Virus record (IMG/VR): IMGVR_UViG_3300037247_000847
Location: 31,948 to 95,947 of that record
Length of the DNA: 64,000 bases
Direction: 5' to 3' (one strand)
Source of the DNA: a virus
How positions within the stretch are numbered: the first letter of the stretch is position 1; every line of letters begins with the position of its first letter. The notes below the pieces were generated by a model, which was given only the letters and a program-made list of their open reading frames with translations, made no database searches and was not told the origin of the DNA. The translations under genes were made by a program, and so were the position numbers. This document shows positions 3,723-50,955 of this stretch, piece after piece.

Positions 3723-3738
3723 TATGACCAATCATCTA

Positions 3739-3836
3739 CCTCCAAGGCCCGCAGGTAGCGGAGACTAAATTAACGGGGTTTTTACCCTTGAAGGGTCAAA
3801 TCCTCCCCTGCAGGCCTTGGAGGCGGTCCTAAAATA
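3739..3836 (+). repeat. Dispersed ~100 bp structured repeat, copy 1
   Basis: 17-bp imperfect inverted arms (3739-3755 / 3807-3823) around an inner ACCCT-TGA-AGGGT hairpin; homologous to four other copies. Confidence 0.92.
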
Positions 3837-3907
3837 CTATCTAAGCTATTTATTAGGTCTTTTCGGTGGCTCCTTACATTATCTATGTAACCCCACTTAA
3901 GATCACC

Positions 3908-4034
3908 GAGGACTCAGACAGCCCACTGATGCGCTAACCACGTTCCAGCATTGCTGGCCCCCGTGGCTGAGTATTAAGTGCTCCCTGAGTAGAGGTCTTC
4001 GCTCTTGCACAATCGCAATAACAGGAGCGAAAAA
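3908..4034 (+). promoter_or_regulatory. Structured 5' leader of the capsid gene with an SD-sequestering hairpin
   Basis: TTCGCTCTTG (3998-4007) pairs with CAGGAGCGAA (4022-4031), which contains the AGGAG RBS; further upstream stems. Confidence 0.5.
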
Positions 4035-4942: not shown

Positions 4943-5242
4943 ATGGCATACGTACCAGGAAATCTAGCTCTCCTTAACTCGGTCAATGGTTTTGAGTTGT
5001 ATCGGTATGATTCGACTGATGGCATTACGACCGTGGATACGGCGGGCTACTTCAACAACGTTGACGACTCGCTTCTGCTGCGTGCCGGTGCCTTGATCCA
5101 TGTGATCACGTGGGTTGGGGCGGTACGTACAGGGACTATTGGTGATGTGTCCCTTGTGATCGTCACAACCGTTGACAGTGAAGGTGTTGTCAACGTTTCG
5201 TCGGACATCTTCGAAAAGGGCATTTACTCAAGCGCCGATTAG
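4943..5242 (+). CDS. Putative capsid cement/decoration protein
   Basis: 99 aa beta-rich ORF right after the capsid gene; Y.STD..TTVDTAGYFN; GAGG RBS. Confidence 0.6.
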   Translation: MAYVPGNLALLNSVNGFELYRYDSTDGITTVDTAGYFNNVDDSLLLRAGALIHVITWVGAVRTGTIGDVSLVIVTTVDSEGVVNVSSDIFEKGIYSSAD

Positions 5243-5806
5243 ATGTCTCGAACTTCAAAGGGTGGGGGCCTTGCGTCCCCACCTTACTCTTTATCTCATT
5301 CTGGACCTGTACTGGTATGTGGTAATGCTTACAATCTACACGACGACCTCGAACGCGCCCGGCAGTTATATCCAAACGCACCTGTGATTGCCGTTAACGG
5401 TGCGACGGGAGAATTGCAGGCCTTTGCGTTGTATTCTAAACATCCAGAGAAGATGCCACAATGGATTAAACGGCAACGGCAGTTTGGTAATGACTTCACG
5501 GTTCATGGCTCGAAATACAATCCCGACTGTCCTTGGGTGAATCATTGGTGGGAAGATGCCAGAGGTGGTGGTGGTTCGGCCTGGGGTGCACGTAAATTAG
5601 CAACCCTAATGGGTTTCTATCCGGTGATCCTTTGTGGTGCACCTCTTGATCCTGGGGGCTATGTGTCAAGCCCCATTGCTAAACTGATGCGACGTGAGGA
5701 TGTGATTGACAATTTCAGACGGGAGATTGAGAGTGATGTTGAATGGCATGAGGGTGTGATGAGTATGTCGGGTTGGACACGAGAATTTTTAGGAGAGCCA
5801 AAATGA
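5243..5806 (+). CDS. Putative glycosyltransferase, CstII/Maf (DUF115)-like fold
   Basis: VLVCGNA...VIAVN N-terminal strands and GGSAWGARKLATLMGFYPVILCG resemble the G.S..A...A..MGF..I.L.G motif. Confidence 0.5.
   Translation: MSRTSKGGGLASPPYSLSHSGPVLVCGNAYNLHDDLERARQLYPNAPVIAVNGATGELQAFALYSKHPEKMPQWIKRQRQFGNDFTVHGSKYNPDCPWVNHWWEDARGGGGSAWGARKLATLMGFYPVILCGAPLDPGGYVSSPIAKLMRREDVIDNFRREIESDVEWHEGVMSMSGWTREFLGEPK
5259..5297 (+). terminator. Putative leaky intrinsic terminator after capsid/cement genes
   Basis: Stem AGGGTGGGGGC / GTCCCCACCTT followed by ACTCTTTAT. Confidence 0.45.
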
Positions 5807-6000
5807 AATATATACTGGTTACTATGCTGGCGCAGATTGCCGATGATGAACCCGCACCAAAAGTTCCTGATGATTGGCCAGATAAGTCATATTGGACTGC
5901 TGACTTTTTCAATAATTCTGAGTTAGTAAATAATGTCATGAAAGACGCTCAAGTGGCTATGGGTCGAAAAATCACGCAGGATGGTATGCCGGGATGCTAA
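5803..6000 (+). CDS. Hypothetical protein
   Basis: ATG at 5803 after a GGAGAG RBS, coupled to both neighbours. Confidence 0.55.
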   Translation: MKYILVTMLAQIADDEPAPKVPDDWPDKSYWTADFFNNSELVNNVMKDAQVAMGRKITQDGMPGC

Positions 6001-6545
6001 CAGTTGCCTGTGTATTATCCGAAGGTCCAAAGCGTGTCTACAATATAGAGCACGTTCGCCGCTTGCAAGATATGGTAACACAATATCTCAAAAGGCGTTA
6101 TCATTTTGTTTGTATTACTGATTCCCCATATCCTGGTTGGTGGGCTAAAGTCAGCCTATTCGAGCCAGGGCGTTTTAAAGGCCGTGTACTTTACCTCGAT
6201 TTAGACGTAACCATTGTTGGTTTTCTGAATGATTTAGCACTTTACCCTGCACCCTTTGTAGCTATCAAGGACTGGCTACGACCAACCATCAATTCCTCCG
6301 TTATGGCTTGGGATGCCGGTAAGATGGATCATCTGTTTACCAAGTTTGATAAATCCGTCATGGACCGGCTCAAGGGTGATCAGGATTGGATCACTGGGCA
6401 GATGCCTAAAGCTGAGACGTTTCCGCGAGATTGGTGTGTATCGTATCGAAAGTCTGTGAAGATGTTTGGTGTGGTACCACCTAATGCTAAAATAGTTGTA
6501 TTTCACGGGTTTCCTAAACCTTGGGAGGTTCCTGCAGTTGTTTGA
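5994..6545 (+). CDS. GT-A glycosyltransferase (GT8-like)
   Basis: WWAKVSLF, YLDLDV (DxD), NSSVMAW, GDQDWI, VFHG.PKPW. Confidence 0.8.
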   Translation: MLTVACVLSEGPKRVYNIEHVRRLQDMVTQYLKRRYHFVCITDSPYPGWWAKVSLFEPGRFKGRVLYLDLDVTIVGFLNDLALYPAPFVAIKDWLRPTINSSVMAWDAGKMDHLFTKFDKSVMDRLKGDQDWITGQMPKAETFPRDWCVSYRKSVKMFGVVPPNAKIVVFHGFPKPWEVPAVV

Positions 6546-7980
6546 TATAGTTTTAATCAATCCAGGTGCCACGCAAGCTATTTATCAGGGTCTTTCAGAT
6601 GAATTTACTGCTATTGAGCCTCCAACCTGGGCTCGTATGATTGCTGGCTGGCTCAGAGATCGTGATTACAAGGTTGCGATCATTGACCAAGAAGCGGAAG
6701 CACTTGGTACAGACGATATCTTGACAAGACTTGAGAAAATGGGTAATCCACTTGTCGCTATTATCGTATCTGGACACCAACCATCTGCGTCGACACAACA
6801 GATGGTGGGGGCACATACTGTTGCTAATGCTATTGGAACACAATGTACTACTATAATGGTAGGTAATCATCCGTCGGCCTTACCAGAGCGTACATTAGAG
6901 GAAGAACCAGTTGAGTTTGTATGTGATGGTGAAGGTCCTATAACCATTGCTGCAATTTTGGACGGTGTATCTATTGTAGACGTACCTGGTCTTGTTTGGG
7001 CAGTTGATCCAAAACTTGATCGTGTTTGCAACCCCCGTGCTCCGCTCATTCCAATGGATGAGCTCTATGGCGATGTATGGGATCTTCTGCCAATGGATCG
7101 CTACCGTGCTCATAATTGGCAGTGCTTTGATGGTAGCCCACGTCAACCCTACGCTTCGATCTACACCTCACTTGGTTGTCCGTTTAAGTGTTCGTTTTGT
7201 ATGATCAATATATTTCAGCATACTAATCGTTATCGTATGCGAGAGCCGAAAAGTGTGGTTGCGGAAATCGAGATGCTTTACACTGATCATGGTGTACAAA
7301 CTCTCAAAATTGCCGATGAGATGTTTGTCCTGAACGACCAGCATGTGACGGAAATTTGTGAAGGGTTAGCAAAGAAACCGTTCGTTGATGAACTTAACAT
7401 CTGGGCCTACGCTCGGATCGATACGGTAAAGTCCTACCAGCCGAGATTGCTGCGCCGTGCTGGCATTCGCTGGTTGGCATTAGGTATTGAGAGTGCTAGT
7501 TCACATGTTCGGAATGGTATCTACAAATCGTTCACCCAAGATGATATTTTTGCGGTTGTTAGAATGATTCAGGAGGCAGGTATCAACGTGATTGGCAATT
7601 TTATCTTTGGATTGCCGGATGATACATTAGAATCCATGCGTGAGACCCTGGATATGGCGGAGGAGCTAAACTGTGAGTTTGCGAATTTCTATGTGGCTCA
7701 AGGATATCCAGGTAGCAAATTATTTACAGAAACACCAGTTAAGGATTTGCCAGATAGTTGGGTAGGATATTCACAACACGCCCATGAAACGTGCCCTCTA
7801 CCAACAGCTACATTATCGAGTGCAGAGGTACTGAGTTTTAGAGATTGGGCGTTTCAACATTATTTTACTGGTGAACAGTATCTCGATATGATTAATAAAA
7901 AATTTGGTACTAATGTTGTAGAAGAAATCAAGCGTATGACATCTGTTAAGATGTCGCGAAAACTATTGGAAGTAACATGA
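6538..7980 (+). CDS. Cobalamin-binding radical SAM enzyme (class B methyltransferase-like)
   Basis: N-terminal B12-binding domain (GNHPSALP, GEG), GCPFKCSFC (CX3CX2C), LGIES, FIFGLP; TTG start after GGAGG. Confidence 0.88.
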   Translation: MFDIVLINPGATQAIYQGLSDEFTAIEPPTWARMIAGWLRDRDYKVAIIDQEAEALGTDDILTRLEKMGNPLVAIIVSGHQPSASTQQMVGAHTVANAIGTQCTTIMVGNHPSALPERTLEEEPVEFVCDGEGPITIAAILDGVSIVDVPGLVWAVDPKLDRVCNPRAPLIPMDELYGDVWDLLPMDRYRAHNWQCFDGSPRQPYASIYTSLGCPFKCSFCMINIFQHTNRYRMREPKSVVAEIEMLYTDHGVQTLKIADEMFVLNDQHVTEICEGLAKKPFVDELNIWAYARIDTVKSYQPRLLRRAGIRWLALGIESASSHVRNGIYKSFTQDDIFAVVRMIQEAGINVIGNFIFGLPDDTLESMRETLDMAEELNCEFANFYVAQGYPGSKLFTETPVKDLPDSWVGYSQHAHETCPLPTATLSSAEVLSFRDWAFQHYFTGEQYLDMINKKFGTNVVEEIKRMTSVKMSRKLLEVT

Positions 7981-8384
7981 TGGAAATAGTAATTGACTTT
8001 CCACCGATCTATGACGAGATAAAGTCTGTATTCCCAATGGCTGGTCGCGGTGTTATTTATGCTTGGGGCAACAAGATCTATAATCCATCTAATGTGTATA
8101 TTCCACTACAACTTATTGCTCATGAGCGGACGCACGGGCGAAGGCAAGGTAATGACGTGGATGGTTGGTGGCGTCGTTATTTAGATGAGAAGAAATTTAG
8201 GTTGGTTGAGGAGATATTAGCCCATGCTACCGAGATGGAGTGTTTGTTAGGTCCAAACCCGAATAGGCAGATGAGACGACAAGTTATTAAATCTACTGCA
8301 AAACGTCTTTCAAATCCACTTTATCGTTATGGTATTTCACGAGTACAAGCACAAGTTCTGTTAAAAAAGAAACTCGCAGCATGA
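7977..8384 (+). CDS. Small HExxH zincin-like protein
   Basis: LIAHERTHGRRQ plus a downstream E (VEEILAH). Confidence 0.55.
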   Translation: MMEIVIDFPPIYDEIKSVFPMAGRGVIYAWGNKIYNPSNVYIPLQLIAHERTHGRRQGNDVDGWWRRYLDEKKFRLVEEILAHATEMECLLGPNPNRQMRRQVIKSTAKRLSNPLYRYGISRVQAQVLLKKKLAA

Positions 8385-8400
8385 ACGGAAGGACGATGAT

Positions 8401-8616
8401 ATGGCAGTCACCTTTACGATGACTTGGGCCGATGGCTTGGATTCCAACGTCAATATAGGTTTTGTTCTAACCGATGACCGAGGACGTATTACACCATGGA
8501 TAGTACCAACCGATTCGATTGGTAACTGTCCAGATCACGCAGCGCGGGCCGTAGCTGACGAACTTCATAATCAGAGTGGTGCAGCTTCAGGAACGGTTAC
8601 GGTCACTATCTCATGA
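8401..8616 (+). CDS. Hypothetical protein
   Basis: 71 aa ORF, GGAAGG RBS, overlaps the next start. Confidence 0.6.
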   Translation: MAVTFTMTWADGLDSNVNIGFVLTDDRGRITPWIVPTDSIGNCPDHAARAVADELHNQSGAASGTVTVTIS

Positions 8617-8837
8617 GGCGCGTTTACGCCCCTTATGGGTTTAACTGGCGGGGGATCGAGAATAATTCTGTTGCTCGATGTACCAAGTGCAATCTTGAGT
8701 ACGAGACTCGCCACGCTATCCGCAAGGAGGGTGATGAACTCGTGCAGTATTTTTCCCATCTTTGTCCTGGGTGCGATAACCTAGATCATATATTTGGTGT
8801 TAGTTCCCCACCAGAAAAGATGACCCTTCATGGATGA
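8613..8837 (+). CDS. Small Zn-ribbon-like protein
   Basis: CTKC ... CPGC pairs. Confidence 0.55.
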   Translation: MRRVYAPYGFNWRGIENNSVARCTKCNLEYETRHAIRKEGDELVQYFSHLCPGCDNLDHIFGVSSPPEKMTLHG

Positions 8838-9429
8838 TCTTATGACTCCTGATGACTTGATCGTCTTCGAGGAGGAGATTGCTGCTGAGTTCAACGCTGG
8901 TAAGATTCCCTATCCGGTCCATTTGAGCGATGGCAATGAAGCGCAGCTAATCGAAATCTTCAGGGATGTGCGACCTCAGGACTGGGTTTTCACGACTTGG
9001 CGGTCGCATTACCACGCGCTGCTCAAAGGTGTTTCATGTGAAACATTGCGAGCCGCTATCTTCCGTGGTGAATCCATGCGGCTCCGGTTTCCCGACCATC
9101 GTGTCTACGGCTCGTCGATTGTTGGTGGAACAATTTCGCACGCTCTAGGAGTCTCATTGGCAATTAAGCGTAGAGGCGTTAACGAAAAAGTTTGGGCCTT
9201 CGTTGGTGACATGGCTGCCCATAGTGGTGTCTTTTATGAATGTCGTCACTACGCTGCGGCTCATGATTTACCACTTGAGTTAGTAATCGAAGACAACAGG
9301 GCGAGCGTTTGTACTCCAACCTACGATGTTTGGGGCACCTCGCCACCACTACCATGGATGTGGGTGAGGAAATATGAATATCAGTCCAAATATCCCCATG
9401 CCGGAGCCGGGAAGCGTGTGCAGTTCTGA
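8830..9429 (+). CDS. ThDP-dependent dehydrogenase E1 alpha-like subunit (short form)
   Basis: HLSDGNE, TWRSHYHALLKG, GDMAA..G.FYE...EDN ThDP-binding motif. Confidence 0.88.
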   Translation: MDDLMTPDDLIVFEEEIAAEFNAGKIPYPVHLSDGNEAQLIEIFRDVRPQDWVFTTWRSHYHALLKGVSCETLRAAIFRGESMRLRFPDHRVYGSSIVGGTISHALGVSLAIKRRGVNEKVWAFVGDMAAHSGVFYECRHYAAAHDLPLELVIEDNRASVCTPTYDVWGTSPPLPWMWVRKYEYQSKYPHAGAGKRVQF

Positions 9430-9928
9430 CTACCGGGCCGCGCTTTCGCAGGCTATGGAGGAAATGGCCTGTGATCCCCGCGTGGTGTTCCTGGGTCAAG
9501 GGGTACGCGATCCGGGTACGTTCATGTCTACGACCTTGCAGGACGTACCACTGGATAAGCGTATTGAGATGCCGGTTATGGAGGAAACTCAGCTCGGGAT
9601 GTCGATCGGTATGACGCTGGCTGGTATGGTACCCGTTTCGATCTTCCCACGGTGGAACTTCCTCCTACTCGCTGCGAACCAGTTGGTAAACCATCTGGAC
9701 AAGATGCAGGTCCGTGTGATCGTGCGGGTGGGGATTGGTAGTTCCAAACCACTCGATCCGGGGGTTCAACATACGTCCGATTTCACCGAGGCCTTTCGCC
9801 TCATGATGCCTAATACATACATTAGGAGATTGAACAATGCGAGCGATGTCATTACAGAATATCGACAGGCGCTTGAGCGAAAAGGCCCCAGTATCCTCGT
9901 CGAAATCGCAGACCTCTATGCAGGTTAA
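9416..9928 (+). CDS. ThDP-dependent dehydrogenase E1 beta / transketolase pyrimidine-binding subunit (short form)
   Basis: VVFLGQGV, EMPVMEETQLGMSIG, NQLVNHLDK; GTG start after GGAG (ORF opens at 9374). Confidence 0.85.
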   Translation: MCSSDYRAALSQAMEEMACDPRVVFLGQGVRDPGTFMSTTLQDVPLDKRIEMPVMEETQLGMSIGMTLAGMVPVSIFPRWNFLLLAANQLVNHLDKMQVRVIVRVGIGSSKPLDPGVQHTSDFTEAFRLMMPNTYIRRLNNASDVITEYRQALERKGPSILVEIADLYAG

Positions 9929-11099
9929 GCTCCACGAGCCCACATTTGGTGAGGATGAGATCGCCGCCGCTGTCGCGGTAATGCGCTCTACTATGGTGAC
10001 CTCGGGTGCTAAGGTACGGGAGTTTGAATCCCACTTCGGTCCGAACGCGGTCATGTGCAACTCGGGTTCGTCAGCCAATCTGCTAGCTATCGCGGCCTTG
10101 TGCAATCCGATGACGCCGACCCACCTGGAACCGGGTGACGAGGTGATCGTCTCGGCGCTGTCATGGTCGACTACCGTCTGGCCGTTGGTGCAGCATGGGC
10201 TGGTGCCGAAGATCGTCGACATCGATCCCTGGACACTCAACATCGATGGGGCAGAAGTCGAGCGAGCTATCGCGCGCAAAACCAGAGCCATCATGCCAGT
10301 CCACGTCTACGGCAATCCATGTGACTTGCAGGAGATCAATCTTATCGCCGATAAACACGGCCTGTACTTGATCGAGGATTGCTGTGAGGCTCTTGGGGCA
10401 ACCTATCTAAATCAGCCAGTGGGGCACGGTGCGAATTTCGCGACATATAGCTTCTACTTTTCGCATCACATCACCACGCTCGAAGGTGGTTTGGTTACGA
10501 CGGCGAGTACTAATATTGATCTCCTCCGCATCCTGCGCGCCCACGGCTGGACCCGCGATCTTGAGGACGACACGGCCTATCGCGACAAGCACCCCGACAT
10601 CGACCCCAAGTTCCTGTTCGTCAATGCGGGCTACAACCTGCGGGCCAGCGAGGTCAACGCGGCCATCGGGCTGGTGCAGTTACCCAAGCTGCCCGGCTTC
10701 GTCGAGGCCCGGCGCGCGGCTGCGGCCCATTTGATCGAGGCCTTCCGGCCCCACAAGGAGTTTCTGTCGGTCCAGAAGGAGACGCCCGGCGGCAAATCAT
10801 CTTGGTTTGGCTTCCCGGTGATAGTCAGCAAGGACGCCCCCTTCGAGGCCAAGGCTCTCAGAACTCACTTCGAGCGCCATGGCATCGAGACCAGGGCCAT
10901 TATCTGCGGCAACATCGCGCGTCAGCCCGGCATGCAGATTTGGCCGCATGTCAAGGTCGGCTCGCTCAAGCATGCGGATCATGTGATGAGCCACGGGTTC
11001 TCGATTGGCTGCCACCAGGGCGTGGATGCCGCGGCCTGCGATCACGTTCGCACCGTCCTCGATGACTTCATGGGTCTGGTCAGATGCGCGCCTTCATAA
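9918..11099 (+). CDS. colD: PLP/PMP-dependent GDP-4-keto-6-deoxy-sugar 3-dehydratase (ColD-type, DegT/DnrJ family)
   Basis: NSGSSANL, EDCCEALGA, SFYFSHHITTLEGG (His in place of the Schiff-base Lys), LRAHGWTR. Confidence 0.82.
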   Translation: MQVKLHEPTFGEDEIAAAVAVMRSTMVTSGAKVREFESHFGPNAVMCNSGSSANLLAIAALCNPMTPTHLEPGDEVIVSALSWSTTVWPLVQHGLVPKIVDIDPWTLNIDGAEVERAIARKTRAIMPVHVYGNPCDLQEINLIADKHGLYLIEDCCEALGATYLNQPVGHGANFATYSFYFSHHITTLEGGLVTTASTNIDLLRILRAHGWTRDLEDDTAYRDKHPDIDPKFLFVNAGYNLRASEVNAAIGLVQLPKLPGFVEARRAAAAHLIEAFRPHKEFLSVQKETPGGKSSWFGFPVIVSKDAPFEAKALRTHFERHGIETRAIICGNIARQPGMQIWPHVKVGSLKHADHVMSHGFSIGCHQGVDAAACDHVRTVLDDFMGLVRCAPS

Positions 11100-12073
11100 C
11101 CGGCATCGCGGGCTTCGTCGGCTCGCACTTGGCCGAATACTTGATGGCGAATACGGATTGGGAGATCGCGGGCCTGACGCGCTGGTCCGATCCGCTGGAC
11201 AACCTCGCGGCCTTGATGCCCTGGATCAACACGGGCCAGCGCGTGCGGCTGATCGAGGGTGATCTGAATGACCCCGCGTCGCTTGCTCGAGCGGTCAAGG
11301 CTTCACGACCTGATTATGTATTCCATTTAGCGGCGCAGTCCTACGTGCCGGCGAGTTTTATCAGCCCGGCCGAGACGCTGCGGACCAATATCATCGGGAC
11401 CAGTAATCTGTTGGAGGCATTGCGGCAGGAGGTGCCGGAAGCCTGGGTGCATATCTGCTCGTCCTCGGAGGTCTACGGGCGGGCGCAAGGAACCCTGGCC
11501 GAAGATTCACCGTTGCATGCAACAAGTCCCTATTCCGTCTCCAAGATTGGAACCGATTTCCTGGGTCGCTTTTACGCCGAGGCCTATGGGCTTAAGACGG
11601 TGACGACACGGATGTTTACCCATACAGGCCCGCGTCGAGGCGATGTGTTTGCCGAATCATCCTTCGCTAAACAGATTGCTATGAAGGAGGTGGGACAACT
11701 CAGTGGGCCTATCCAAGTTGGTAATCTGAACGCGGTGCGGACAATAGCGGACGTGCGTGATGCCGTCCGGGCCTATCATATGCTACTGACCGTCAATCCC
11801 CAGGCAGGCGCGGTTTACAACATAGGTGGTACCCATACCTGTACGATCAGCCAGGTACTCGATATCCTGTTCGAAGTGGCTGGTCAGCGCTACGAAGTTG
11901 AAGTCGACCCGGAGCGGTTGCGACCCATCGATGCTGATCATCAGGTGCCGGACTGTTCTGCATTCATGGAGCACACAGGTTGGAAGCCAGAGATTTCTTT
12001 CGAGCAGACCATGGCCGACCTGCTGAAATATTGGCGTGAGAAGGTCAAACACAGGAGGCTGTTACAACGATGA
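11084..12073 (+). CDS. dmhA: GDP-(manno)heptose/mannose 4,6-dehydratase (DmhA/WcbK-type SDR)
   Basis: GIAGFVG, RW...DNL, HLAAQS, CSSSEVYG, PYSVSK, TRMFTHTGPRR, RLRPIDAD; resembles DmhA as recalled from memory. Confidence 0.8.
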   Translation: MRAFITGIAGFVGSHLAEYLMANTDWEIAGLTRWSDPLDNLAALMPWINTGQRVRLIEGDLNDPASLARAVKASRPDYVFHLAAQSYVPASFISPAETLRTNIIGTSNLLEALRQEVPEAWVHICSSSEVYGRAQGTLAEDSPLHATSPYSVSKIGTDFLGRFYAEAYGLKTVTTRMFTHTGPRRGDVFAESSFAKQIAMKEVGQLSGPIQVGNLNAVRTIADVRDAVRAYHMLLTVNPQAGAVYNIGGTHTCTISQVLDILFEVAGQRYEVEVDPERLRPIDADHQVPDCSAFMEHTGWKPEISFEQTMADLLKYWREKVKHRRLLQR

Positions 12074-12468
12074 TCGTTCTCTGTTCGGGTGGGTTTGACC
12101 CACTTCATGCTGGCCACCTTAATCATCTCATGGAAGCAAGCAAGTTAGGCACGGTTGCCGTGGCTCTGACCTCTGATGATTGGCTAATGCGAAAGAAAGG
12201 CTACGTCTTTATGTCGTGGAAGGATCGAGCGTTCATTTTGGCTGGGTTGTCTTGTGTTGCCTCCGTCCATCCGGTCGCAGATGAGGACGATACGGTTTGT
12301 GCGGCATTGAGAACTATAAGGCCGGATATTCATGCCAATGGTGGTGACCGTGTAGAGCCACTTCCTGCAGAAGATGCAGTCTGCAAAGAGCTTGGAATTA
12401 GACAGGTGTTTGGTATCGGTGGCGACAAGACACATTCATCAAGCAAACTCGTTGAGGCGGTCAGATGA
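12070..12468 (+). CDS. HIGH-family nucleotidyltransferase (RfaE-II/TagD-like)
   Basis: GGFDPLHAGH, RKKG, ANGGDR, KTHSSS. Confidence 0.85.
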   Translation: MIVLCSGGFDPLHAGHLNHLMEASKLGTVAVALTSDDWLMRKKGYVFMSWKDRAFILAGLSCVASVHPVADEDDTVCAALRTIRPDIHANGGDRVEPLPAEDAVCKELGIRQVFGIGGDKTHSSSKLVEAVR

Positions 12469-13445
12469 TTATTTCTAGAACTCCCTACAGAATTAGTTTC
12501 TTCGGTGGTGGCTCGGATTACGAGGCTCAGTATTCTCGGCATGGTGGCGCGGTCCTGAGTGCTACGATCGACAAATACTGTTACATCTCGCTCCGGCGCA
12601 TGCCACCGTTTCTTGGTAGTAAGTACCGGGTTTTTTGGTCGCAAATGGAGGCTGTCGACCACCGTGAGGACATTCAGCATGCCGGTGTGCGCGGGTGCCT
12701 TGAATTTCTCGATATCGATGATGGGATAGAAATAAACCATGCTGGTGATCTTCCGGCTCGAAGTGGGTTAGGTTCATCCTCGGCCTTTACCGTGGGTATG
12801 CTCTCTGCTCTACACGCGCTTCGTGGTGAAACACCTAGCAGAGCACAGCTTGCAAATGAGGCTATAAAGGTAGAGCAGGAGGTCTTGTGTGAAACTGTTG
12901 GTATTCAGGATCAAATTGCTTGTGCCTGGGGTGGGCTAAACATGATTGAGATCAACCGTGGGGGTAATTACGGTATCATACCTGTATTGTTGCCCGCGGA
13001 GCGCCGGACCATGCTAGAAAGTCATTTGATGTTGTTTTTTACCGGCATCCAGCGTCATGCATCTGAGATAGCTAAGACACAGATTGATAATACCGAGCGG
13101 AACGTAGATGCGCTTGGAGCGATTACCGAACAAGTGCGACAGGCGTTTGTTATTCTTAAGGAAGGAGATATGGATGAATTTGGTCATTTGCTTGGTGAGG
13201 GTTGGAAACTGAAGCGACAATTGAGTGACAAGATATCGAGCCCAGAGATTGATGCGCTATATGCTGCCGCCTGTGCTGCCGGTGCGTTGGGGGGAAAAGT
13301 GATTGGAGCCGGTGGTGGGGGCTTCATGCTTTTCTACGTTCCTCTTGAGCGCCAGACCGCTGTACGTGGGGCACTAGGGGGATTGATCGACATCCCGGTT
13401 CGGTTTGAGAATGGTGGTAGTCAGATTGTATTAAATGCCCAATAA
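12465..13445 (+). CDS. hddA: D-glycero-alpha-D-manno-heptose-7-phosphate kinase (GHMP family)
   Basis: RTPYRISFFGGGSDY, PARSGLGSSS, GIQDQ, GKVIGAGGGG. Confidence 0.88.
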   Translation: MIISRTPYRISFFGGGSDYEAQYSRHGGAVLSATIDKYCYISLRRMPPFLGSKYRVFWSQMEAVDHREDIQHAGVRGCLEFLDIDDGIEINHAGDLPARSGLGSSSAFTVGMLSALHALRGETPSRAQLANEAIKVEQEVLCETVGIQDQIACAWGGLNMIEINRGGNYGIIPVLLPAERRTMLESHLMLFFTGIQRHASEIAKTQIDNTERNVDALGAITEQVRQAFVILKEGDMDEFGHLLGEGWKLKRQLSDKISSPEIDALYAAACAAGALGGKVIGAGGGGFMLFYVPLERQTAVRGALGGLIDIPVRFENGGSQIVLNAQ

Positions 13446-15252
13446 ATCGGTTTACTTTAACGAATATAACATCCGTATGGGGTCACTGTCGTATCTACCC
13501 TTGGTATCAGGGTTGTTGCGTGCTCATGCGGAAACGTCGGAGATGGTCAGGCGGGAATATACGTTCAAGCCATTTATCTATGTTAATGACGCACCACAAA
13601 CCATTCTTGACCGTTACAACAGCCCAGCGGTTGCCGCATTCTCATCCTTTATGTGGAATGAGCAACTCAACCATACGATCGCGCGAGAGGTTAAGGCATC
13701 TTGGCCTGAGTGCCTGATTGTATTTGGTGGACCGCAAGTTCCTCATCATCCAATGGAGTACATGAAAGAACGACCTTGGATCGACGTGTGTGTCCGTGCC
13801 GAGGGTGAAGTGGCCTTCACCGAGGTGCTAGAGCGCTTCGTTGAAACAACTGATTTCTCGGCTATTCCTGGTATAACATGGCAAGGAGGTGAAAACCATG
13901 GGGAGCGTCCTTTCTCACGTGATCTCGACGAATTGCCATCGCCTTATTTGGAGGGACTCTATGATACGTTGGTTGAAGGTGGAGATAGTTTCCAAGCCAT
14001 TATCGAAACTAACCGTGGATGCCCCTTTCACTGCACATTCTGCTATTGGGGTAAGGGTGGCCTTAGTCGAAAATATAAATATTTCGGATTGGAGCGGATC
14101 TATCGTGAATTAGAATGGTGTGCCAAACACAAAATAAAGTACATCTTCAATGCCGACAGTAATTTCGGCATGAACAAACGCGATACCGAGATTGCAGATT
14201 TTCTGGTTGATCTCAAGGAACGAACCGGGTTCCCCGATAAGTTCCGCACATGTTACGGCAAGAATACGGACGAAAAGATATTTGCTATTGGCTCACTGTT
14301 TCACAAGCACAAGTTGGAAAAGGGCATCACGTTGGCTCGGCAGTCCAATGACAAAACGGTGTTGAAGAATATCAAGCGTGGTAATATATCTATGGATACC
14401 TACAAGAACCTACAGGAGCGTTTCAACCACGAAAATATCCCAATTTATTCGGAGTTGATCCTTGGATTACCAGGGGAGACGGTTGAGAGTTGGCGGAATG
14501 GTATTGATGAATTGTTGAGGGCTGGGCTCAAGAATCAACTGTTTGTTTATTTCTGCCAGGTCTACCCAAATACTGATCTCGGAGATCCGGGGTATCAGAA
14601 AGAATTTGGTATTGTTACCCAGCAGGTACCACTTAACGAAATTCATGGAACGATTCATTATGAAGCATTTTGGGTAACGGAATACGAGGAAATCGTAGTC
14701 GCTACTGATAGTATGCCAACCGAGGATTGGCGGCAGATGGCTATTCTATCGTGGGTCACGATGTTGATGCATAGTCTCAAGCTGGGCTACTTTGTGATGG
14801 AGTGGATGCATGACGAACATGACGTACCTCATATTGAGTTTTTGGAATACCTCGCTACAGGTTTAGGAGATGGTCCGATAGCCCGTGAAATAGCAATTTT
14901 CAATGCTACGCTTGATGACATGCTGGTTGGGAAGGGACGTGGTTGTGTCATTGATGACTGTGGTAATACCTATTGGGATATCGAGGAAGCCAGTTTTATC
15001 CGCTGTATGCGAAGTCCACATGATTTTTATTGGGAAGACCTGTACTTTCAAGTTAAAATGTTTCTCTTTGATTATTGGAGAAAAAATGGCTTCGGCGAGC
15101 GCTCAAAGATAAAAAGAAGTTTATCTGAAGTGATCGAATATCAGAAGTCGCGTATACCAACCATCGAGATGTTTGACGGTAACGTAGAACGCTGGGCTCG
15201 TGAGACCATCTTATGGGGTCGCAAGAGTGGAACGATGTTGGTGCCTGAATGA
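13435..15252 (+). CDS. Cobalamin-binding radical SAM enzyme
   Basis: VFGGPQ, AEGE, ETNRGCPFHCTFC, DSNFG, ELILGLPGET. Confidence 0.88.
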   Translation: MPNKSVYFNEYNIRMGSLSYLPLVSGLLRAHAETSEMVRREYTFKPFIYVNDAPQTILDRYNSPAVAAFSSFMWNEQLNHTIAREVKASWPECLIVFGGPQVPHHPMEYMKERPWIDVCVRAEGEVAFTEVLERFVETTDFSAIPGITWQGGENHGERPFSRDLDELPSPYLEGLYDTLVEGGDSFQAIIETNRGCPFHCTFCYWGKGGLSRKYKYFGLERIYRELEWCAKHKIKYIFNADSNFGMNKRDTEIADFLVDLKERTGFPDKFRTCYGKNTDEKIFAIGSLFHKHKLEKGITLARQSNDKTVLKNIKRGNISMDTYKNLQERFNHENIPIYSELILGLPGETVESWRNGIDELLRAGLKNQLFVYFCQVYPNTDLGDPGYQKEFGIVTQQVPLNEIHGTIHYEAFWVTEYEEIVVATDSMPTEDWRQMAILSWVTMLMHSLKLGYFVMEWMHDEHDVPHIEFLEYLATGLGDGPIAREIAIFNATLDDMLVGKGRGCVIDDCGNTYWDIEEASFIRCMRSPHDFYWEDLYFQVKMFLFDYWRKNGFGERSKIKRSLSEVIEYQKSRIPTIEMFDGNVERWARETILWGRKSGTMLVPE

Positions 15253-16112
15253 AGGCTCTATTTGTCACGCCAGAATCTCATGAGCTTGTCTTAGCGTGGA
15301 ATTCGTGGAATGAGCCAGCTACGCACAAGACGTTTAATGTTTGGGACGAGCCCGACGATGAAAGCATATTGCAAATTGTTAGAGACACTGCGCCGGATGT
15401 GATCTTTTATGTTGGTGGTAATGCAGGTAAAGGCTTACCATCATTCAAGACGTTTCGGGATCTTCGAAACCTGGCACCTCTTATTCATTTATGTTGGGAT
15501 GCAACTGACGTCGCTTGGCACGCGACCCTTGCGGAATACAAAAGATACGAGTGTTTCAATCTCCAGGTTGCAATGGATGGAGGAACGGACTCTCCGGTAG
15601 ATATGGCTACATTGACGCCGTGTGATCCACGGCCATATGAACGAAGCAGTGACGTAAGAAATATCAGGTGTGCTTTTGCTGGGCAGAATGTCAACAGAGC
15701 GTTTAATCCTATTGATCAACACCCTCGGTGGAATATCCTGATGCCCCTGGTTAAAATGAAGTTGGTCAAATACCGGAAACGAAATGCTGGACCATATAGT
15801 GATTATGTAGAGTATATTAAGAACTGTCAGATATTGCTCAACATCTCACATACTGGATCGGGTAGGGCTCATCATGTCAAGGTACGTGTTATTGAAGCTG
15901 GACTTGCTGGATGTGCCCTTTTGGAAATGAGACAAGCACCAACTAGTAAATGGATACCGAAGGAATTGTTATTTCAGTATAGAAATATTAAAGAAGCAGC
16001 AGAGATAATTCGTTCAGCCGAGATAGAGGACAAGGCTTCTGCATTAGGTACGTATGTGCGTGAGAATTATAGTCCACAGCGGATTTACGAAAGCATTCTG
16101 GATCGGCTATGA
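15249..16112 (+). CDS. CgeB/YkvP-like GT-B glycosyltransferase, paralog 1
   Basis: PDVIFY, LLNIS...VKVRVIEAGLAGCALL, Y.P..IY C-terminus. Confidence 0.65.
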   Translation: MKALFVTPESHELVLAWNSWNEPATHKTFNVWDEPDDESILQIVRDTAPDVIFYVGGNAGKGLPSFKTFRDLRNLAPLIHLCWDATDVAWHATLAEYKRYECFNLQVAMDGGTDSPVDMATLTPCDPRPYERSSDVRNIRCAFAGQNVNRAFNPIDQHPRWNILMPLVKMKLVKYRKRNAGPYSDYVEYIKNCQILLNISHTGSGRAHHVKVRVIEAGLAGCALLEMRQAPTSKWIPKELLFQYRNIKEAAEIIRSAEIEDKASALGTYVRENYSPQRIYESILDRL

Positions 16113-16981
16113 AAGCGGTCTTTGTAACGACATTTCCTAATGACGTAGCCAATGTGATTGCAGCTTGGGATTGCTGGAATGAGGTTAAATCCGAGCGGAT
16201 TATTTTTGACTTCCGTCAAGTTATCGACGACGCAGATATTTTGCGCCGTGCGGAGGCAGCTTCACCGGACGTAATTTTTTATGTTGGTGGTTGTGGTGGA
16301 CCAATGCACTTACCCACCATTGCGACGCTCCAAGCATTGAAGGAAATGGCCCCTTCTATTAATTTGATTTTTGACGGTATCGAGGATGCATGGTATGAAA
16401 TGATTGCGAAATACAAGCAGCATGAATGCTTCAATTTGCAGGTTACTATTGACGGGTGTCCCGACGCTCCTGTTGATTTGGTCACCACTGCTCCGGTTGA
16501 TACGAGGTTGTTTGCGGGGGAAGATCCACCCAAGGATATCCCCTGCGGGATTTCGGGAAACATTGGCCGTGGTGATAAGAGGTCGAAAATCATCAATCCG
16601 TTGATATGGGAAGGTCTAGTAGAAATGAGGAGGAGGGATGTGGTTGGGGATGGGTTCCCGGAGCACGTTGCCTTTATGCGAAGATGCCAAATGATCATTA
16701 ACACGTCTTTTACAGGTTCAGGCAACAAACATCATGTAAAGCAGCGTGTGTTCGAAACCGGGTTTGCTGGAGCTGCCTTACTTGAATGTGAAGCAGCCCC
16801 AACACATTTCTGGATACCACAGTCATATTTCTTTAGGTACAAAAATACTTTACACGCAAGTCAGATTATTAAGACACTCGACGCGAGGGAGATTGCGGAA
16901 AAGGGTCAAATGTTGCAACAATATGTTAGGGCTCATTATATGCCAGAGCAAGTATATGGTGCAATGTTGGATCGATTATGA
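16109..16981 (+). CDS. CgeB/YkvP-like GT-B glycosyltransferase, paralog 2
   Basis: PDVIFY, CFNLQV, KQRVFETGFAGAALLE. Confidence 0.65.
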   Translation: MKAVFVTTFPNDVANVIAAWDCWNEVKSERIIFDFRQVIDDADILRRAEAASPDVIFYVGGCGGPMHLPTIATLQALKEMAPSINLIFDGIEDAWYEMIAKYKQHECFNLQVTIDGCPDAPVDLVTTAPVDTRLFAGEDPPKDIPCGISGNIGRGDKRSKIINPLIWEGLVEMRRRDVVGDGFPEHVAFMRRCQMIINTSFTGSGNKHHVKQRVFETGFAGAALLECEAAPTHFWIPQSYFFRYKNTLHASQIIKTLDAREIAEKGQMLQQYVRAHYMPEQVYGAMLDRL

Positions 16982-18006
16982 GGGCATTATTCGTTACCAG
17001 CTCGACGTCCGATGTAGATAGTCTCGTTCGTGCCTGGGATTGCTGGCAGCCTGACAAATCTATCCGCGTGATGTTTCCCCACATGGGGGAGCCTAGAGAC
17101 GAGAAAATTCTGGCTATAGCTAGGGAAATGCGACCGGATATTATTTTCTACATTGGAGCCAATGAAGGTTCAGGTATTCCTTCGATGGAAACGTTTTTGA
17201 GACTTCGGGAAATGGCTCCGTCGATCAACCTTTGTTGCGATGCTGGGGATACGCCGTGGTACGAACCTTTGAAGCGTTACAAAAAAGCGGGGTGTTTCAA
17301 TCTGCAAGTTGCGCTTGATGGCTATCTTAATGCTCCGGTCGATCTTGTGACCATAACCCCGGTCGATCCTGCACCGTACATTCAGCCTGTCGCGTGGAAA
17401 CGCTTCATCCGGTGTGGGTTTTCGGGAGGGGTATCTTCCAAGGAAAGGCTTGCTGTTTTCAAAGTAAGCTTTGCAAGCCGGATGCCACCAAAGATCGTTA
17501 AGAAGCGCCCTCGCAATGCGTTGCCTGCTTGGAAGCCACTGTATAAGAAACATCCCGACATGCCACCTCCAGTGCCAACCACACAGCGGGACAAGATCGT
17601 TTGGGGTCTTGAGAACATGAAAGACATTATCACTGTGCGGCGGCGAACATCCAAGGCCCCTTATTCCGATCACGTCGCATTTATGCAGTCGTGTCATATA
17701 ATCATAAATACGTCAACCAGTGGAACGGGAGACACACATCAAATTAAGGGGCGTGTTCTCGAAGCTGGATGGGCTAAATGCGCGCTACTTGAATCAGTAG
17801 GCTCGCCAATAGCCGAGTGGCTACCAGAAGAAAGTTATTTCATTTACCGTGATGCTGATCATGCGAAGGACCTGATCAAAAGTCTAACAGTTGAGCAAGT
17901 CACAAAATCAGCGCTCGTACTAAATGAATATGTGGAGAATCATTATCACCCTCGTCAGATTTACGGCGAGATTTTGGAGCGAGCTGGTGTGGATTATTCC
18001 GTCTAG
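16978..18006 (+). CDS. CgeB/YkvP-like GT-B glycosyltransferase, paralog 3 (K/P-rich insertion)
   Basis: PDIIFY, CFNLQV, KGRVLEAGWAKCALLE. Confidence 0.65.
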   Translation: MRALFVTSSTSDVDSLVRAWDCWQPDKSIRVMFPHMGEPRDEKILAIAREMRPDIIFYIGANEGSGIPSMETFLRLREMAPSINLCCDAGDTPWYEPLKRYKKAGCFNLQVALDGYLNAPVDLVTITPVDPAPYIQPVAWKRFIRCGFSGGVSSKERLAVFKVSFASRMPPKIVKKRPRNALPAWKPLYKKHPDMPPPVPTTQRDKIVWGLENMKDIITVRRRTSKAPYSDHVAFMQSCHIIINTSTSGTGDTHQIKGRVLEAGWAKCALLESVGSPIAEWLPEESYFIYRDADHAKDLIKSLTVEQVTKSALVLNEYVENHYHPRQIYGEILERAGVDYSV

Positions 18007-18571
18007 GGGGCGACCTCAAAATATTAATCGTTTGGCTGAAGCTTTTCGGGACACTGGAGTAACAACGCCCGTTCGGTTACGGCTCGATGATGATGATCCG
18101 TGCGGATATGTTTGTCCAGCTCACTGGGAAGTAGTTACTGGGCCGCGAGCACCTTTAAGCCAATACTACAACGAAGTGTTTGATCGCAGCCTCGATTGGT
18201 ACGGGCTCTTTGCCGACGATGTAGTACCAGAAACGCCGTACTGGGATATACTTCTAATCGAAGCTGCCGGTTCCGATGGTGTAGCTTATGGTAATGATGG
18301 GATTGGTACTAGGCCAACACACTTTGTGGTCGGTGGGCAGCTTGCCCGCGAGATTGGCTGGCTGGCGCTGCCTGGCTTATCACGTATCTACATCGACACG
18401 GTTTGGCACGATATCGCGACCAAGCGCAACGTGTTGCGGTTTCTTCCTGATGTTCGGATTCCGCATCTGCATTTTTCTAACCGGCTGGCGTTGTTCGACC
18501 GAACGTATCGCAAGTCTACTAAGGACCAGGACCGCGCTCTCTATCAGGCGTGGCGCAATCGAGAAGGATGA
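17987..18571 (+). CDS. GT2-like GT-A glycosyltransferase
   Basis: WIIPSRGRP N-terminus, FADDVVP (DxD-like), Y.D..W, HLH; start approximate. Confidence 0.65.
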   Translation: MWIIPSRGRPQNINRLAEAFRDTGVTTPVRLRLDDDDPCGYVCPAHWEVVTGPRAPLSQYYNEVFDRSLDWYGLFADDVVPETPYWDILLIEAAGSDGVAYGNDGIGTRPTHFVVGGQLAREIGWLALPGLSRIYIDTVWHDIATKRNVLRFLPDVRIPHLHFSNRLALFDRTYRKSTKDQDRALYQAWRNREG

Positions 18572-19101
18572 GTATCATGAGACAGGCGAAACGGGTGTTA
18601 AAGCCGCAGGTCATAAATGTGTTTGATAATGCGGTTGTGCAGGTAAAATGTATACCTAGTGAGGACGAAATCGACGTTGCGACCCTCTTGGGTCATTCAT
18701 TAGCACGATTCGAGTTTATTATTGGTACGTCGTTCGATCTACAATTTCTTTCTATGGACGGATCACAGTTGCTAGGTATCCGTCGTTATATTGTTAATGA
18801 GGTGACGGACAGAATAGCTGTCAATGATGTTAATCACTACCAAACATTGTCAAAGACAGTTTTTGATCGGAAGTGTGAACCTATTGGAGATTGGTTCTTT
18901 TTCCATGAGGAGGGTAATCAACTACAAAAAAATCTTGTAGGTGATAAACCTAATAATAAGACTAAAGACTTTCGTAATATGAGTGTAGCCGATCTCCAGG
19001 GTACTATGAAGGGATTGAGAGGGAGTGGATTTAAAGTAGGTACTAAACACGGCGCAATGGTTAAAGCTATTCGTAAGCACCTATCGACTGTCCAGGAGTA
19101 G
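18568..19101 (+). CDS. Hypothetical protein
   Basis: 177 aa ORF coupled to the upstream gene, before tail tube A. Confidence 0.65.
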   Translation: MSIMRQAKRVLKPQVINVFDNAVVQVKCIPSEDEIDVATLLGHSLARFEFIIGTSFDLQFLSMDGSQLLGIRRYIVNEVTDRIAVNDVNHYQTLSKTVFDRKCEPIGDWFFFHEEGNQLQKNLVGDKPNNKTKDFRNMSVADLQGTMKGLRGSGFKVGTKHGAMVKAIRKHLSTVQE

Positions 19102-49819: not shown

Positions 49820-49877
49820 TTCTCTTCCTTTCTTTGTTCAAGGTTCAACCGTTTGCATCCTTTAGTTAGTAATACAG

Positions 49878-50954: not shown

Positions 50955-50955
50955 G

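Follow-up and report, generated by a model that had tools for sequence, protein, structure and literature searches.

The stretch of DNA analysed here, hereafter the window, comprises 64,000 nucleotides (bases 31948-95947) of the IMG/VR virus record IMGVR_UViG_3300037247_000847, a closed genome of 95,947 bp with a 127-bp terminal repeat. Between its head and tail genes it carries an island of glycan-related genes (5243-18571, plus strand) which, on comparative evidence, probably serves to glycosylate the capsid within the host cytoplasm, the acceptor being probably the head decoration protein p99 encoded immediately upstream. The island is the most elaborate version seen of a swappable cassette widespread in uncultured phages. 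A more venturesome proposition, which we hold only tentatively, is that a widespread uncultured podophage family, together with unrelated lineages carrying a pair of Maf-fold and GT8-like glycosyltransferase genes, coats its capsid with a strain-variable glycan by means of this cassette, the sugar here being a C4-branched, C-methylated 3,6-dideoxy-heptose (not yet described) placed on a Ser-Ser tail of the decoration protein and made through thiamine diphosphate (ThDP)-dependent and cobalamin radical S-adenosylmethionine (SAM) chemistry.

The order and coupling of the genes are directly established. The plus-strand block encodes in succession the small terminase, the large terminase, the portal protein (110-1810), a scaffold-like protein, the major head protein (major capsid protein, MCP), p99, the island, the tail tubular proteins A and B and fibre-like proteins; the flanks of the island are annotated with PHROG as the major head protein and p99 upstream and tail tubular proteins A and B downstream. 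The island itself consists of 18 plus-strand open reading frames (ORFs), i01 to i18, between the p99 stop codon (5242) and i19 (18550-19101), a gene of the structural frame. Nearly all junctions between these ORFs abut or overlap, by 4-90 nt, and the sole apparent gap is filled by a 64-codon ORF at 5803-6000, which brings to 18 the count of about 17 coupled ORFs given in an earlier sequence-only reading of the window. The coupling claimed in that reading stands, as does the location between capsid/cement genes and tube A, except that i19 intervenes before tube A. Promoter-like and terminator-like sites are not commoner in the island than in shuffled sequence, so that the block reads as part of the late morphogenesis operon. 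As the island begins at the p99 stop codon and ends at a structural-frame gene, this arrangement was counted in favour of virion glycosylation.

Six of the island products resemble glycosyltransferases and belong to at least three folds, as the sequence-only reading had proposed (about six). They are given here with the candidate acceptor:

4943..5242, plus strand: p99, putative head decoration protein of 99 residues, candidate glycan acceptor (AlphaFold 2 (AF2) fold; position after the MCP gene)
5243..5806, plus strand: i01, MptE/Maf/GT42-fold protein of 187 aa, first island gene (AF2 fold; PF01973 20.0 bits, cut-off 34.6)
5994..6545, plus strand: i03, GT8-like (GT-A) glycosyltransferase, partner of i01 (profile matches; phrog_1962, E 1e-18)
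15249..16112, plus strand: i15, Glyco_trans_1_2-like, first of three paralogues (PF13524 28.4 bits)
16109..16981, plus strand: i16, Glyco_trans_1_2-like, second of three paralogues (PF13524 21.2 bits, below cut-off)
16978..18006, plus strand: i17, Glyco_trans_1_2-like, third of three paralogues (PF13524 26.1 bits)
17924..18571, plus strand: i18, virus-specific GT2-like (GT-A) protein (phrog_14945, E 1e-27; true start probably near 17987)

The fold of i01 is established from its AF2 model, with a predicted local distance difference test (pLDDT) score of 90. Fold comparison gave Z scores of 12.1 for SteA, 11.3 for the Maf structure 5MU5, 10.9 for CstII and 10.8 for MptE (HPPK), and 5MU5 is the top Foldseek match. 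The superposition on 5MU5 includes 166 residues (root-mean-square deviation, rmsd, 3.6) and involves residues 261-505 of its 632-residue chain, the full Maf architecture (about 600 aa, with flanking domains) being absent from i01. The i01 family is restricted to viruses and numbers more than 400 proteins; PF01973 is found in 34% of the members of one sister cluster, and tblastn returned no match to i01 in cultured phages. We propose i01 as a predicted protein-directed glycosyltransferase, Maf enzymes being responsible for flagellin O-glycosylation in the cytoplasm (PMC3426422, PMC4065374). A profile of i03 built from 10 homologues matches the Skp1 alpha-galactosyltransferase 6MW5 (E 1.2e-6), glycogenins (E about 3e-4) and GT8 entries, and both Asp residues (D69, D71) of its L-D-L-D motif are invariant. 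A homologue of i03 (27% identical) is PmgQ of Escherichia phage P1 (NC_005856 81449-82096), a late protein of "putative morphogenetic function" annotated in RefSeq as a glycosyltransferase. The paralogues i15, i16 and i17 share 42-43% identity with each other. The motifs D-D-D-D-P and A-D-D-V of i18 are conserved and the Atlas clusters closest to it consist of viral glycosyltransferases, PF00535 being present in 24% of the members of one such cluster. A homologue of i18 belongs to a glycosyltransferase - glycosyltransferase - nucleotidyltransferase trio of Streptomyces phage Jada (locus L108, record 58151-59875); trios of this type lie within the DNA replication genes of Streptomyces phages of about 130 kb and are candidates for DNA-sugar modification.

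The synteny of the island was established from relatives retrieved in IMG/VR scans, using the major head protein as query (80 loci) and then an alignment of i01 (further loci). In all loci of the family, about 90 contigs, the order portal - scaffold - MCP - p99 - variable segment - i19 - tube A is retained. In these loci i01 is always found directly after the MCP and decoration genes, and i19 lies ahead of tube A whether or not a relative has an island, which makes it the right border of the insertion site. The distance from MCP to tube A varies from 0.26 to 9.2 kb among relatives and reaches 14.2 kb in this phage, the largest seen. This survey, which the sequence-only reading had called for, revealed homologous islands at the same site, hereafter type A, in at least 11 related viral contigs, with 45-69% amino-acid identity and a content comprising i01, i03, radical SAM enzyme, E1 pair, ColD-type and DmhA-type dehydratases, nucleotidyltransferase, kinase, Glyco_trans_1_2 protein and i18. 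These identities are similar to those of the portal and tube A proteins, indicating a long residence in the family and excluding a chimeric assembly. No counterpart of i14, of two of the three Glyco_trans_1_2 copies, or of i02, i05, i06 and i07 was found among the fetched relatives.

What occupies the site differs strongly from one relative to another. Type-A islands are scattered among island-less phages on the MCP tree (5 changes), and the site is empty in the close relatives L009, L013 and L021. Some relatives possess i01 alone or accompanied by GT8-like genes and a SAM methyltransferase. At the same site, L035 (2113-11251) and L044 (5340-13393) hold a set of PseB, PseC, WbuX, HisF-like, CMP-transferase, GNAT and NeuB genes which, from these families, is identified as a nonulosonic-acid pathway; their cassettes include two copies of c6, a protein without assigned function, next to a long-form decoration protein. 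No link between c6 and i01 was detected by hhalign, and sequence-profile searches of the PDB returned no usable match for i01, i18, the c6 family or the three Glyco_trans_1_2 proteins. Islands were found in relatives of 44% and of 65% G+C and their composition matches that of each genome, suggesting that the function travels with the phage and not with the glycan of one host. The conserved core of the island is i01 (Maf/sialyltransferase fold) with the GT8-like enzyme.

This core is also associated with capsid genes outside the family. Among 185,579 species genomes searched for i01-like genes, seven contigs of metagenome-assembled genomes carry one (hidden Markov model E 1e-8 to 1e-34), with a GT8-like gene as well in 6 of the 7. 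L111 shows the succession portal (phrog_145), head-morphogenesis protein, scaffold, i01-like gene, MCP (phrog_247), one ORF and GT8-like gene; in L114, portal (phrog_12), MCP (phrog_10), a 139-residue ORF and i01-like gene; and L112 and L115 have a head of the MCP-protease fusion type. The i01-like and GT8-like parts are fused in a single ORF in L113 (8341-9510). A tandem fusion of two i01-like domains occurs in L110 (356-1345). The pair is thus tied to capsid genes in at least four types of head module, a tie to the capsid beyond what synteny within one family could show.

The protein encoded directly upstream of i01 has the fold of a head decoration protein. The AF2 model of p99, derived from 15 homologues, has a pLDDT of 90.6 (68 for the last 10 residues) and superposes on the decoration protein of phage LME-1 (9eg4_H) with a Z score of 9.5 and an rmsd of 2.4 Å over 76 of 89 residues (22% identity), the next match having a Z score of 6.0. 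The p99 gene follows the MCP gene throughout the family, and the LME-1 decoration gene is likewise directly 3' of the MCP gene, in a T7-like module (PMC12407071). In the LME-1 protein, the part C-terminal to the capsid-binding base projects outward (PMC12407071); with the fold of p99, this geometry implies that p99 should have its short C-terminal tail directed away from the shell. The tail is flexible and ends in Y-S-S-A-D. An ending of the form [LIFVY]-S-S-x-x is present in p99 of the window and in 11 of 11 type-A relatives, and in only 2 of about 50 other loci (L009, L019), the tails being mostly T/S-D-x-D in island-less relatives and mostly T-Y-G-D-like in loci with i01 only. Ser95 and Ser96 of p99 may be guessed from this suggestive but weak pattern as the candidate glycan site, the major head protein being the second candidate as acceptor. 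Long forms of the decoration protein (190-225 aa), with an extra C-terminal domain as in LME-1, were observed in L009 (10919-11596), L024 (10908-11483), L029 (10914-11492) and L035 (2128-2760); they accompany no island or c6-type cassettes, and occur with i01 in only one divergent case (L030).

The remaining genes of the island were annotated by comparison with Pfam, NCBIfam, PHROG and PDB, and the families are directly established. Those named in the sequence-only reading, an HddA-like kinase, a nucleotidyltransferase, DmhA-type and ColD-type dehydratases, a ThDP E1 pair and two B12 radical SAM enzymes, were all recovered:

5803..6000, plus strand: i02, 64 aa, without family match (start and stop overlap the neighbouring genes)
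6496..7980, plus strand: i04, B12-binding radical SAM enzyme (PF04055 61.3 bits, PF02310 44.5 bits; start codon uncertain)
7977..8384, plus strand: i05, 135 aa, without family match
8401..8616, plus strand: i06, 71 aa, without family match
8613..8837, plus strand: i07, small four-Cys protein (weak ferredoxin-like match PF14697, E 0.005, below cut-off)
8830..9429, plus strand: i08, truncated E1 alpha-like ThDP-binding subunit, 199 aa (PF00676 63 bits; NCBIfam pyruvate dehydrogenase (PDH) E1 alpha)
9374..9928, plus strand: i09, E1 beta-like pyrimidine-binding subunit, 184 aa, without C-terminal domain (PF02779, Transket_pyr, 53.7 bits)
9837..11099, plus strand: i10, ColD/E1-type 3-dehydratase of nucleoside diphosphate (NDP)-4-keto-6-deoxy-sugars, dependent on pyridoxal or pyridoxamine phosphate (PLP/PMP), DegT family (PF01041 275 bits; RfbH model 317 bits)
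11084..12073, plus strand: i11, DmhA-type NDP-heptose 4,6-dehydratase of the short-chain dehydrogenase/reductase superfamily (PF16363 240 bits; 7US5 match)
12070..12468, plus strand: i12, cytidylyltransferase-fold sugar-phosphate nucleotidyltransferase, RfaE domain II-like (PF01467 32.6 bits; PDB matches; TIGR02199 64 bits, below cut-off)
12465..13445, plus strand: i13, HddA-like GHMP sugar kinase (GHMP N- and C-terminal domains; heptose-7-phosphate kinases nearest)
13435..15252, plus strand: i14, second B12 radical SAM enzyme (KedN5 model NF033712 262 bits, below cut-off; PF04055 38.5 bits)

Several of these products point to a heptose-derived sugar. The best solved match of i11 is the GDP-D-glycero-D-manno-heptose 4,6-dehydratase of Campylobacter jejuni, 7US5 (322 bits, E 3.5e-95), compared with 133 bits for the best GDP-mannose 4,6-dehydratase (GMD); it is closer to heptose than to hexose 4,6-dehydratases, and its predicted activity is of the DmhA type. 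The best PDB matches of i13 are the heptose-7-phosphate kinases 3K85, 4USK and 4N3O, and it is presumed HddA-like in function; with 133.5 bits for the HddA model NF049969, below the equivalog cut-off of 600, its membership of HddA is unproven. The best solved match of i10 is ColD 2GMS (260 bits), with 231 bits for E1 3BCX; its active-site S-H-H aligns with that of 2GMS, the His that replaces the aminotransferase Lys being retained. Upstream of the dehydratases, the paired ThDP (PP) and pyrimidine-binding subunits i08 and i09 are encoded by adjacent overlapping ORFs. In i04 both PF02310 and PF04055 score above cut-off, which is the criterion for class B radical SAM enzymes; its best NCBIfam family is HpnJ, far below the cut-off of that family, and its identity among type-A islands is 54-63%. 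In i14, PF04055 is above cut-off and PF02310 (28 bits) under it (32.1), the nearest family being KedN5-type C-methyltransferases, far below the equivalog cut-off. The small protein i07 is a possible electron donor for the radical SAM enzymes.

GmhA (SIS-domain), GmhB and an HddC of the NTP_transferase fold were not found in the 95.9-kb genome by searches which matched control genomes, and the four steps of a complete NDP-heptose pathway (GmhA, kinase, GmhB, nucleotidyltransferase) are not all encoded by the phage. The island is therefore not self-contained and, in opposition to the full de novo synthesis announced by the sequence-only reading, the first heptose steps must be those of the host. 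From this gene content, it would need host heptose 7-phosphate, probably a host phosphatase, and also host cobalamin, ThDP, PLP and SAM. Neither a C5 epimerase nor a C4 reductase is encoded by the phage, which fits with the use of the keto group for branching. The most economical prediction for the product is a C4-branched 3,6-dideoxy-heptose, further modified through C-methylation or rearrangement by the two radical SAM enzymes.

No hydrophobic or transmembrane segment was found in any island product and the 95.9-kb genome encodes no credible multi-span protein, and hence no initiating transferase, flippase, polymerase or ligase. In the absence of such membrane and export proteins, assembly of the glycan must be cytoplasmic. 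A succession of steps can be proposed from the gene families. The host would provide D-glycero-D-manno-heptose 7-phosphate and probably the 7-phosphatase, and the HddA-like kinase i13 and the nucleotidyltransferase i12 would form the NDP-heptose, from which the DmhA-type i11 would make a 6-deoxy-4-keto sugar. The ColD-type i10 would then remove the C3 hydroxyl, the split E1 pair i08/i09 would use pyruvate to attach a two-carbon branch to the C4 keto group, and the B12 radical SAM enzymes i04 and i14 would perform C-methylation or other tailoring, possibly with electrons from i07. Before or during head assembly, i01 and i03 would initiate the glycan in the cytoplasm, on a protein of the virion, and the three Glyco_trans_1_2 paralogues and the GT2-like i18 would extend it. 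The most likely acceptor would be the outward-pointing C-terminal tail of p99, at Ser95-Ser96 in its Y-S-S-A-D ending. The biological role would be that of a strain-variable sugar coat on the head.

Several observations weigh against capsid glycosylation or against parts of this scheme. The PF01973 score of i01 (20.0 bits) is under the gathering threshold, and the MptE fold also takes in a pyrophosphokinase and SteA, at equal Z. The transferase fold of i12 is at odds with the GDP preference implied by the similarities of i10 and i11. The S-S tail is also present in two island-less loci with a long-form decoration protein (L009, L019); it offers only 2 independent contrasts with island type on supported branches (p = 0.5) and, with so few contrasts and the p99 gene adjoining the island, its correlation with the island is inseparable from linkage. 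The alignment of the major head protein has no island-linked insertion or tail. In Streptomyces phages, i18 homologues are located among DNA-replication genes, together with a nucleotidyltransferase and one more glycosyltransferase, and the phage of the window itself makes a hydroxymethyl-pyrimidine precursor, as it possesses a ThyA homologue and a 5-hydroxymethyl-deoxyuridine (5-hmdU) kinase. Heptose-kinase and DegT genes are carried by cyanophages and pelagiphages, where they are usually read as host-surface genes. Finally, known phage clusters with a cytidylyltransferase and a glycosyltransferase put heptose on DNA (bioRxiv 10.1101/2023.12.21.572611).

Remodelling of the host surface is an unlikely alternative, in which the soluble enzymes would add the unusual NDP-sugar to lipid-linked intermediates of the host, lipid A-core or undecaprenyl diphosphate-linked O-units, at the cytoplasmic face, host flippases exporting the product; such a late change of the surface could for example block superinfection or prevent the re-adsorption of progeny to debris. 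Heptose is indeed a sugar of lipopolysaccharide (LPS) and capsule, the pathway relies on the GmhA and GmhB of the host, and HddA-like together with DegT-like genes are found in cyanophages, pelagiphages and Caulobacter phage Cr30. Moreover, LPS cores are frequent substrates of GT8 and GT-B enzymes (for instance LgtC and further GT8 entries), and membrane-bound acceptors are accessible to soluble glycosyltransferases. However, this alternative is faced with the lack of an encoded initiating phosphoglycosyltransferase, flippase, polymerase or ligase, and with an island locked to decoration and MCP genes both in the family and in unrelated head modules. The hosts of phages carrying the same island at 44% and 65% G+C are also unlikely to have a common acceptor glycan, and the late-operon position would leave little time before lysis.

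The window also contains on its minus strand (49202-57469) a thymidine hypermodification cluster, with a ThyA homologue, a 5-hmdU DNA kinase, an amino-acid:DNA transferase and a P-loop kinase, and additionally a sulfotransferase and a radical SAM enzyme; this cluster may yield a new DNA base. It is quite improbable, though an alternative to be taken seriously, that the island extends this pathway, encoded 30 kb away, by putting a heptose-derived sugar on 5-hydroxymethyl-uracil or a derivative shortly before packaging. Three of the cluster genes (ThyA homologue, 5-hmdU DNA kinase and amino-acid:DNA transferase) nevertheless speak for it, as do the demonstrated heptose-adding phage clusters with a cytidylyltransferase and a GT-B enzyme (bioRxiv 10.1101/2023.12.21.572611), the location of Streptomyces phage i18 homologues beside a nucleotidyltransferase among replication genes, and the late timing of DNA glycosylation, before packaging (PMC13326640, abstract). 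The strongest contrast comes from a complete, terminally repeated relative of 55.6 kb (G001), which holds the locus L023 with a type-A island: no match to Thymidylat_synt (PF00303), HMUDK_hel (PF18723), Tet_JBP (PF12851) or DNA_methylase (PF00145) was found in G001, the first two families being matched in the positive control G000. According to the abstract of PMC13326640, all known routes to glycosylatable pyrimidines, including 5-hydroxycytosine, use these four families, so that no hydroxylated pyrimidine made by a known route can be a requirement of the conserved function of the island. The DNA-sugar pathways that are known also cluster with base-modifying genes, whereas here the two lie 30 kb apart, on opposite strands and in different modules, a distance from the DNA-modification cluster already remarked on in the sequence-only reading, and in unrelated lineages the core i01/GT8 pair has capsid genes as neighbours. 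In the phage of the window, some of the enlarged island could still have DNA as its substrate.

Decoration of another soluble target, whether a small molecule (giving a free glycoside), a host cytoplasmic protein or a phage protein outside the virion, appears very improbable. The pathway resembles the deoxysugar tailoring of antibiotics, with a C2 branch and C-methylation, and the closest precedents for branching by an E1 pair and for KedN5-type radical SAM enzymes are natural-product clusters, but no polyketide synthase, nonribosomal peptide synthetase or terpene genes were found in the annotated parts, about the first 13 kb of the genome and many small ORFs being outside the scan, and the linkage to the capsid across lineages would be left unexplained. 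An assembly artefact joining host DNA to the phage contig, for the whole island or its G+C-rich middle, can be practically discounted: although G+C at third codon positions (GC3) is 0.62-0.74 at 9374-12073 (E1 beta, ColD-type and 4,6-dehydratase genes) versus 0.30-0.45 in neighbouring genes, reading frames overlap across every junction, the same gene order recurs at the same site in at least 11 independent contigs from different samples, which rules out the chimera that the sequence-only reading had envisaged as a possible refutation, and the genome is closed by terminal repeats. The wide G+C range of the relatives (44-65%), with frames overlapping both borders, makes recombinational replacement of the middle of the island from a G+C-rich relative the simplest explanation of 9374-12073, and not contamination. 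Comparative evidence thus favours the capsid over these alternatives; of the virion glycosylation advanced by the sequence-only reading, the gene content and the place in the morphogenesis operon hold, and the core claim is still what we infer and not what we observe.

Freeman et al. (2023) reportedly found soluble glycosyltransferases of mycobacteriophages encoded near structural genes and proposed O-glycosylation of capsid or tail proteins, on their C-terminal regions. The likeness lies in phage glycosyltransferases encoded in or beside the structural genes, six of them being found here between decoration and tail genes. The mycobacteriophage systems differ by their actinobacterial hosts, their few glycosyltransferases and their use of host sugar nucleotides; here, six glycosyltransferase-like proteins with a Maf-fold and GT8-like set and a predicted 10-gene route of sugar-nucleotide synthesis and tailoring stand in a podovirus frame. 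The island also resembles the flagellin glycosylation islands with Maf genes (Aeromonas, Campylobacter, Magnetospirillum with Maf 5MU5), where variable sugar cassettes accompany a Maf-fold gene adjacent to that of a structural protein which is abundant and self-assembling, and O-glycosylation takes place in the cytoplasm before assembly (PMC3426422, PMC4065374); nonulosonic acids are also represented among the sister islands. Conversely, Maf proteins have about 630 aa and i01 only 187 aa, corresponding to the catalytic core and below the Pfam cut-off; i01 accompanies heptose or methyl-sugar cassettes, whereas nonulosonic-acid cassettes carry c6 instead; and the acceptor is flagellin for Maf and is proposed to be a phage head protein here.

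For the sugar itself, the closest parallel is the GDP-3,6-dideoxy-heptose pathway of C. jejuni, in which a heptose 4,6-dehydratase and a PLP-dependent C3-dehydratase lead to GDP-3,6-dideoxy-4-keto-heptose, before an epimerase and a C4-reductase finish the product (PMC10440746). The island enzymes match these two dehydratase types closest. Instead of the C5-epimerase and C4-reductase, the island has the ThDP E1 pair and two B12 radical SAM enzymes, and its nucleotidyltransferase has the cytidylyl/adenylyl-transferase fold and not that of HddC; the C. jejuni product moreover enters the capsule by membrane machinery, which is absent from the phage. Two-carbon branching at C4 of NDP-4-keto-deoxysugars, with the chain derived from pyruvate, is carried out by E1 alpha/beta-like pairs in the biosynthesis of paulomycin and avilamycin, Plm8/Plm9 leading to paulomycose and AviB1/AviB2 to eurekanate (PMC4802897). 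The resemblance, a split ThDP E1 pair beside deoxysugar dehydratases with a 4-keto-deoxysugar as substrate, is one of gene arrangement; with 199 and 184 aa, the subunits of the phage are far smaller, and their substrate would be a heptose. Like this phage, giant viruses (chloroviruses, mimiviruses; PMC9614988) combine their own sugar-nucleotide synthesis with glycosyltransferases acting in the cytoplasm on capsid or fibril proteins, but they are eukaryotic viruses with unrelated capsids, as opposed to a tailed phage of 96 kb with a swappable cassette at one locus. With the LME-1 decoration protein (9EG4 chain H; PMC12407071), p99 shares the trimeric capsid-binding base fold and a gene right after that of the MCP, the LME-1 protein continuing into a distal domain where p99 stops after a tail of about 10 residues. 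Clusters for DNA sugar hypermodification (bioRxiv 10.1101/2023.12.21.572611; PMC13326640) similarly comprise a nucleotidyltransferase and glycosyltransferases, with heptose among the sugars; as described there, they adjoin ThyA-homologue or 5mYOX/C5-methyltransferase genes, whereas the island is in the head module and is kept in a relative without those genes. Wzx/Wzy-, ABC- or synthase-dependent loci differ by an initiating polyprenyl-phosphate transferase and membrane proteins for export or polymerisation, which were not found here. In full-text literature searches, neither the glycosylation of a phage decoration protein nor the presence of the island gene set in a phage was found to be reported, and no publication on capsid-linked islands of this kind was found.

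The genes which frame the island are the following:

4035..4928, plus strand: major head protein (phrog_3437, E 2.7e-42; probable start ATG 4035, mechanical ORF start TTG 4005)
18550..19101, plus strand: i19, member of a family of about 150-180 aa (183 residues here), structural-frame gene kept in relatives, without family match
19107..19727, plus strand: tail tubular protein A / adaptor (phrog_394, E 3e-49; PF24175 weak)

The major head protein begins with the MSTSI encoded at 4035 in all relatives, so that its true start is probably 4035 and not 4005; the approximately 300 nt upstream (3723-4034) have no convincing ORF. Just past the p99 stop codon and within the first codons of i01, an 11-bp G+C-rich hairpin (5259-5285, plus strand) has a predicted energy of -20 kcal/mol, with a z-score of only -1.3, and its arms encode the G-G-G...P-P of the i01 N-terminus, a peptide kept in relatives. 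It is the exception to the lack of any excess of promoter-like and terminator-like sites in the block. This hairpin may be an attenuator or a stabiliser of RNA ends; it may reduce read-through into the enzyme genes from the head genes upstream, which are highly expressed. No known RNA was detected in the window with Rfam at gathering thresholds. On the minus strand, at 45063-47807, a family A DNA polymerase is fused to an N-terminal domain of the uracil-DNA-glycosylase superfamily. The nearest cultured relatives are pelagiphage and Vibrio podophages, with 25-36% identity, and megablast of the island against 50,697 phage records gave zero matches. Two gut contigs labelled "Bacteriophage sp." (MT835828, MT835644) had a kinase match and nothing else in common with the window, and were dropped. 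Complete relatives are mostly of 51-56 kb (G001, G002 and G005; G003 is also complete and G004 reaches 84 kb), which makes the 96-kb genome an expanded member of the family. Metagenomes of marine sediments and of other anoxic environments are among the sources of relatives. The record holding L048 is flagged as a provirus by IMG/VR, and some members of the family may be temperate.

To our knowledge, the only viruses with demonstrated virion glycosylation are actinobacteriophages and, with a different form of it, giant viruses. If the proposed reading of the island as a capsid glycosylation system is true, no tailed phage before this one would have been shown to produce an exotic nucleotide sugar of its own for the glycosylation of its virion, and the island would be a phage counterpart of flagellin glycosylation islands. 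It would further mean that sugar coats on the head are common among environmental phages of other bacteria and derive from a hypervariable cassette at a fixed locus, resembling in this the bacterial O-antigen or flagellin glycosylation islands. Such coats would matter for the stability of phages, for the way in which grazers, lectins and immune systems recognise them and for phage engineering, and the island would represent a compact, soluble and membrane-free kit for protein O-glycosylation, with candidate enzymes for a new branched, methylated deoxy-heptose.

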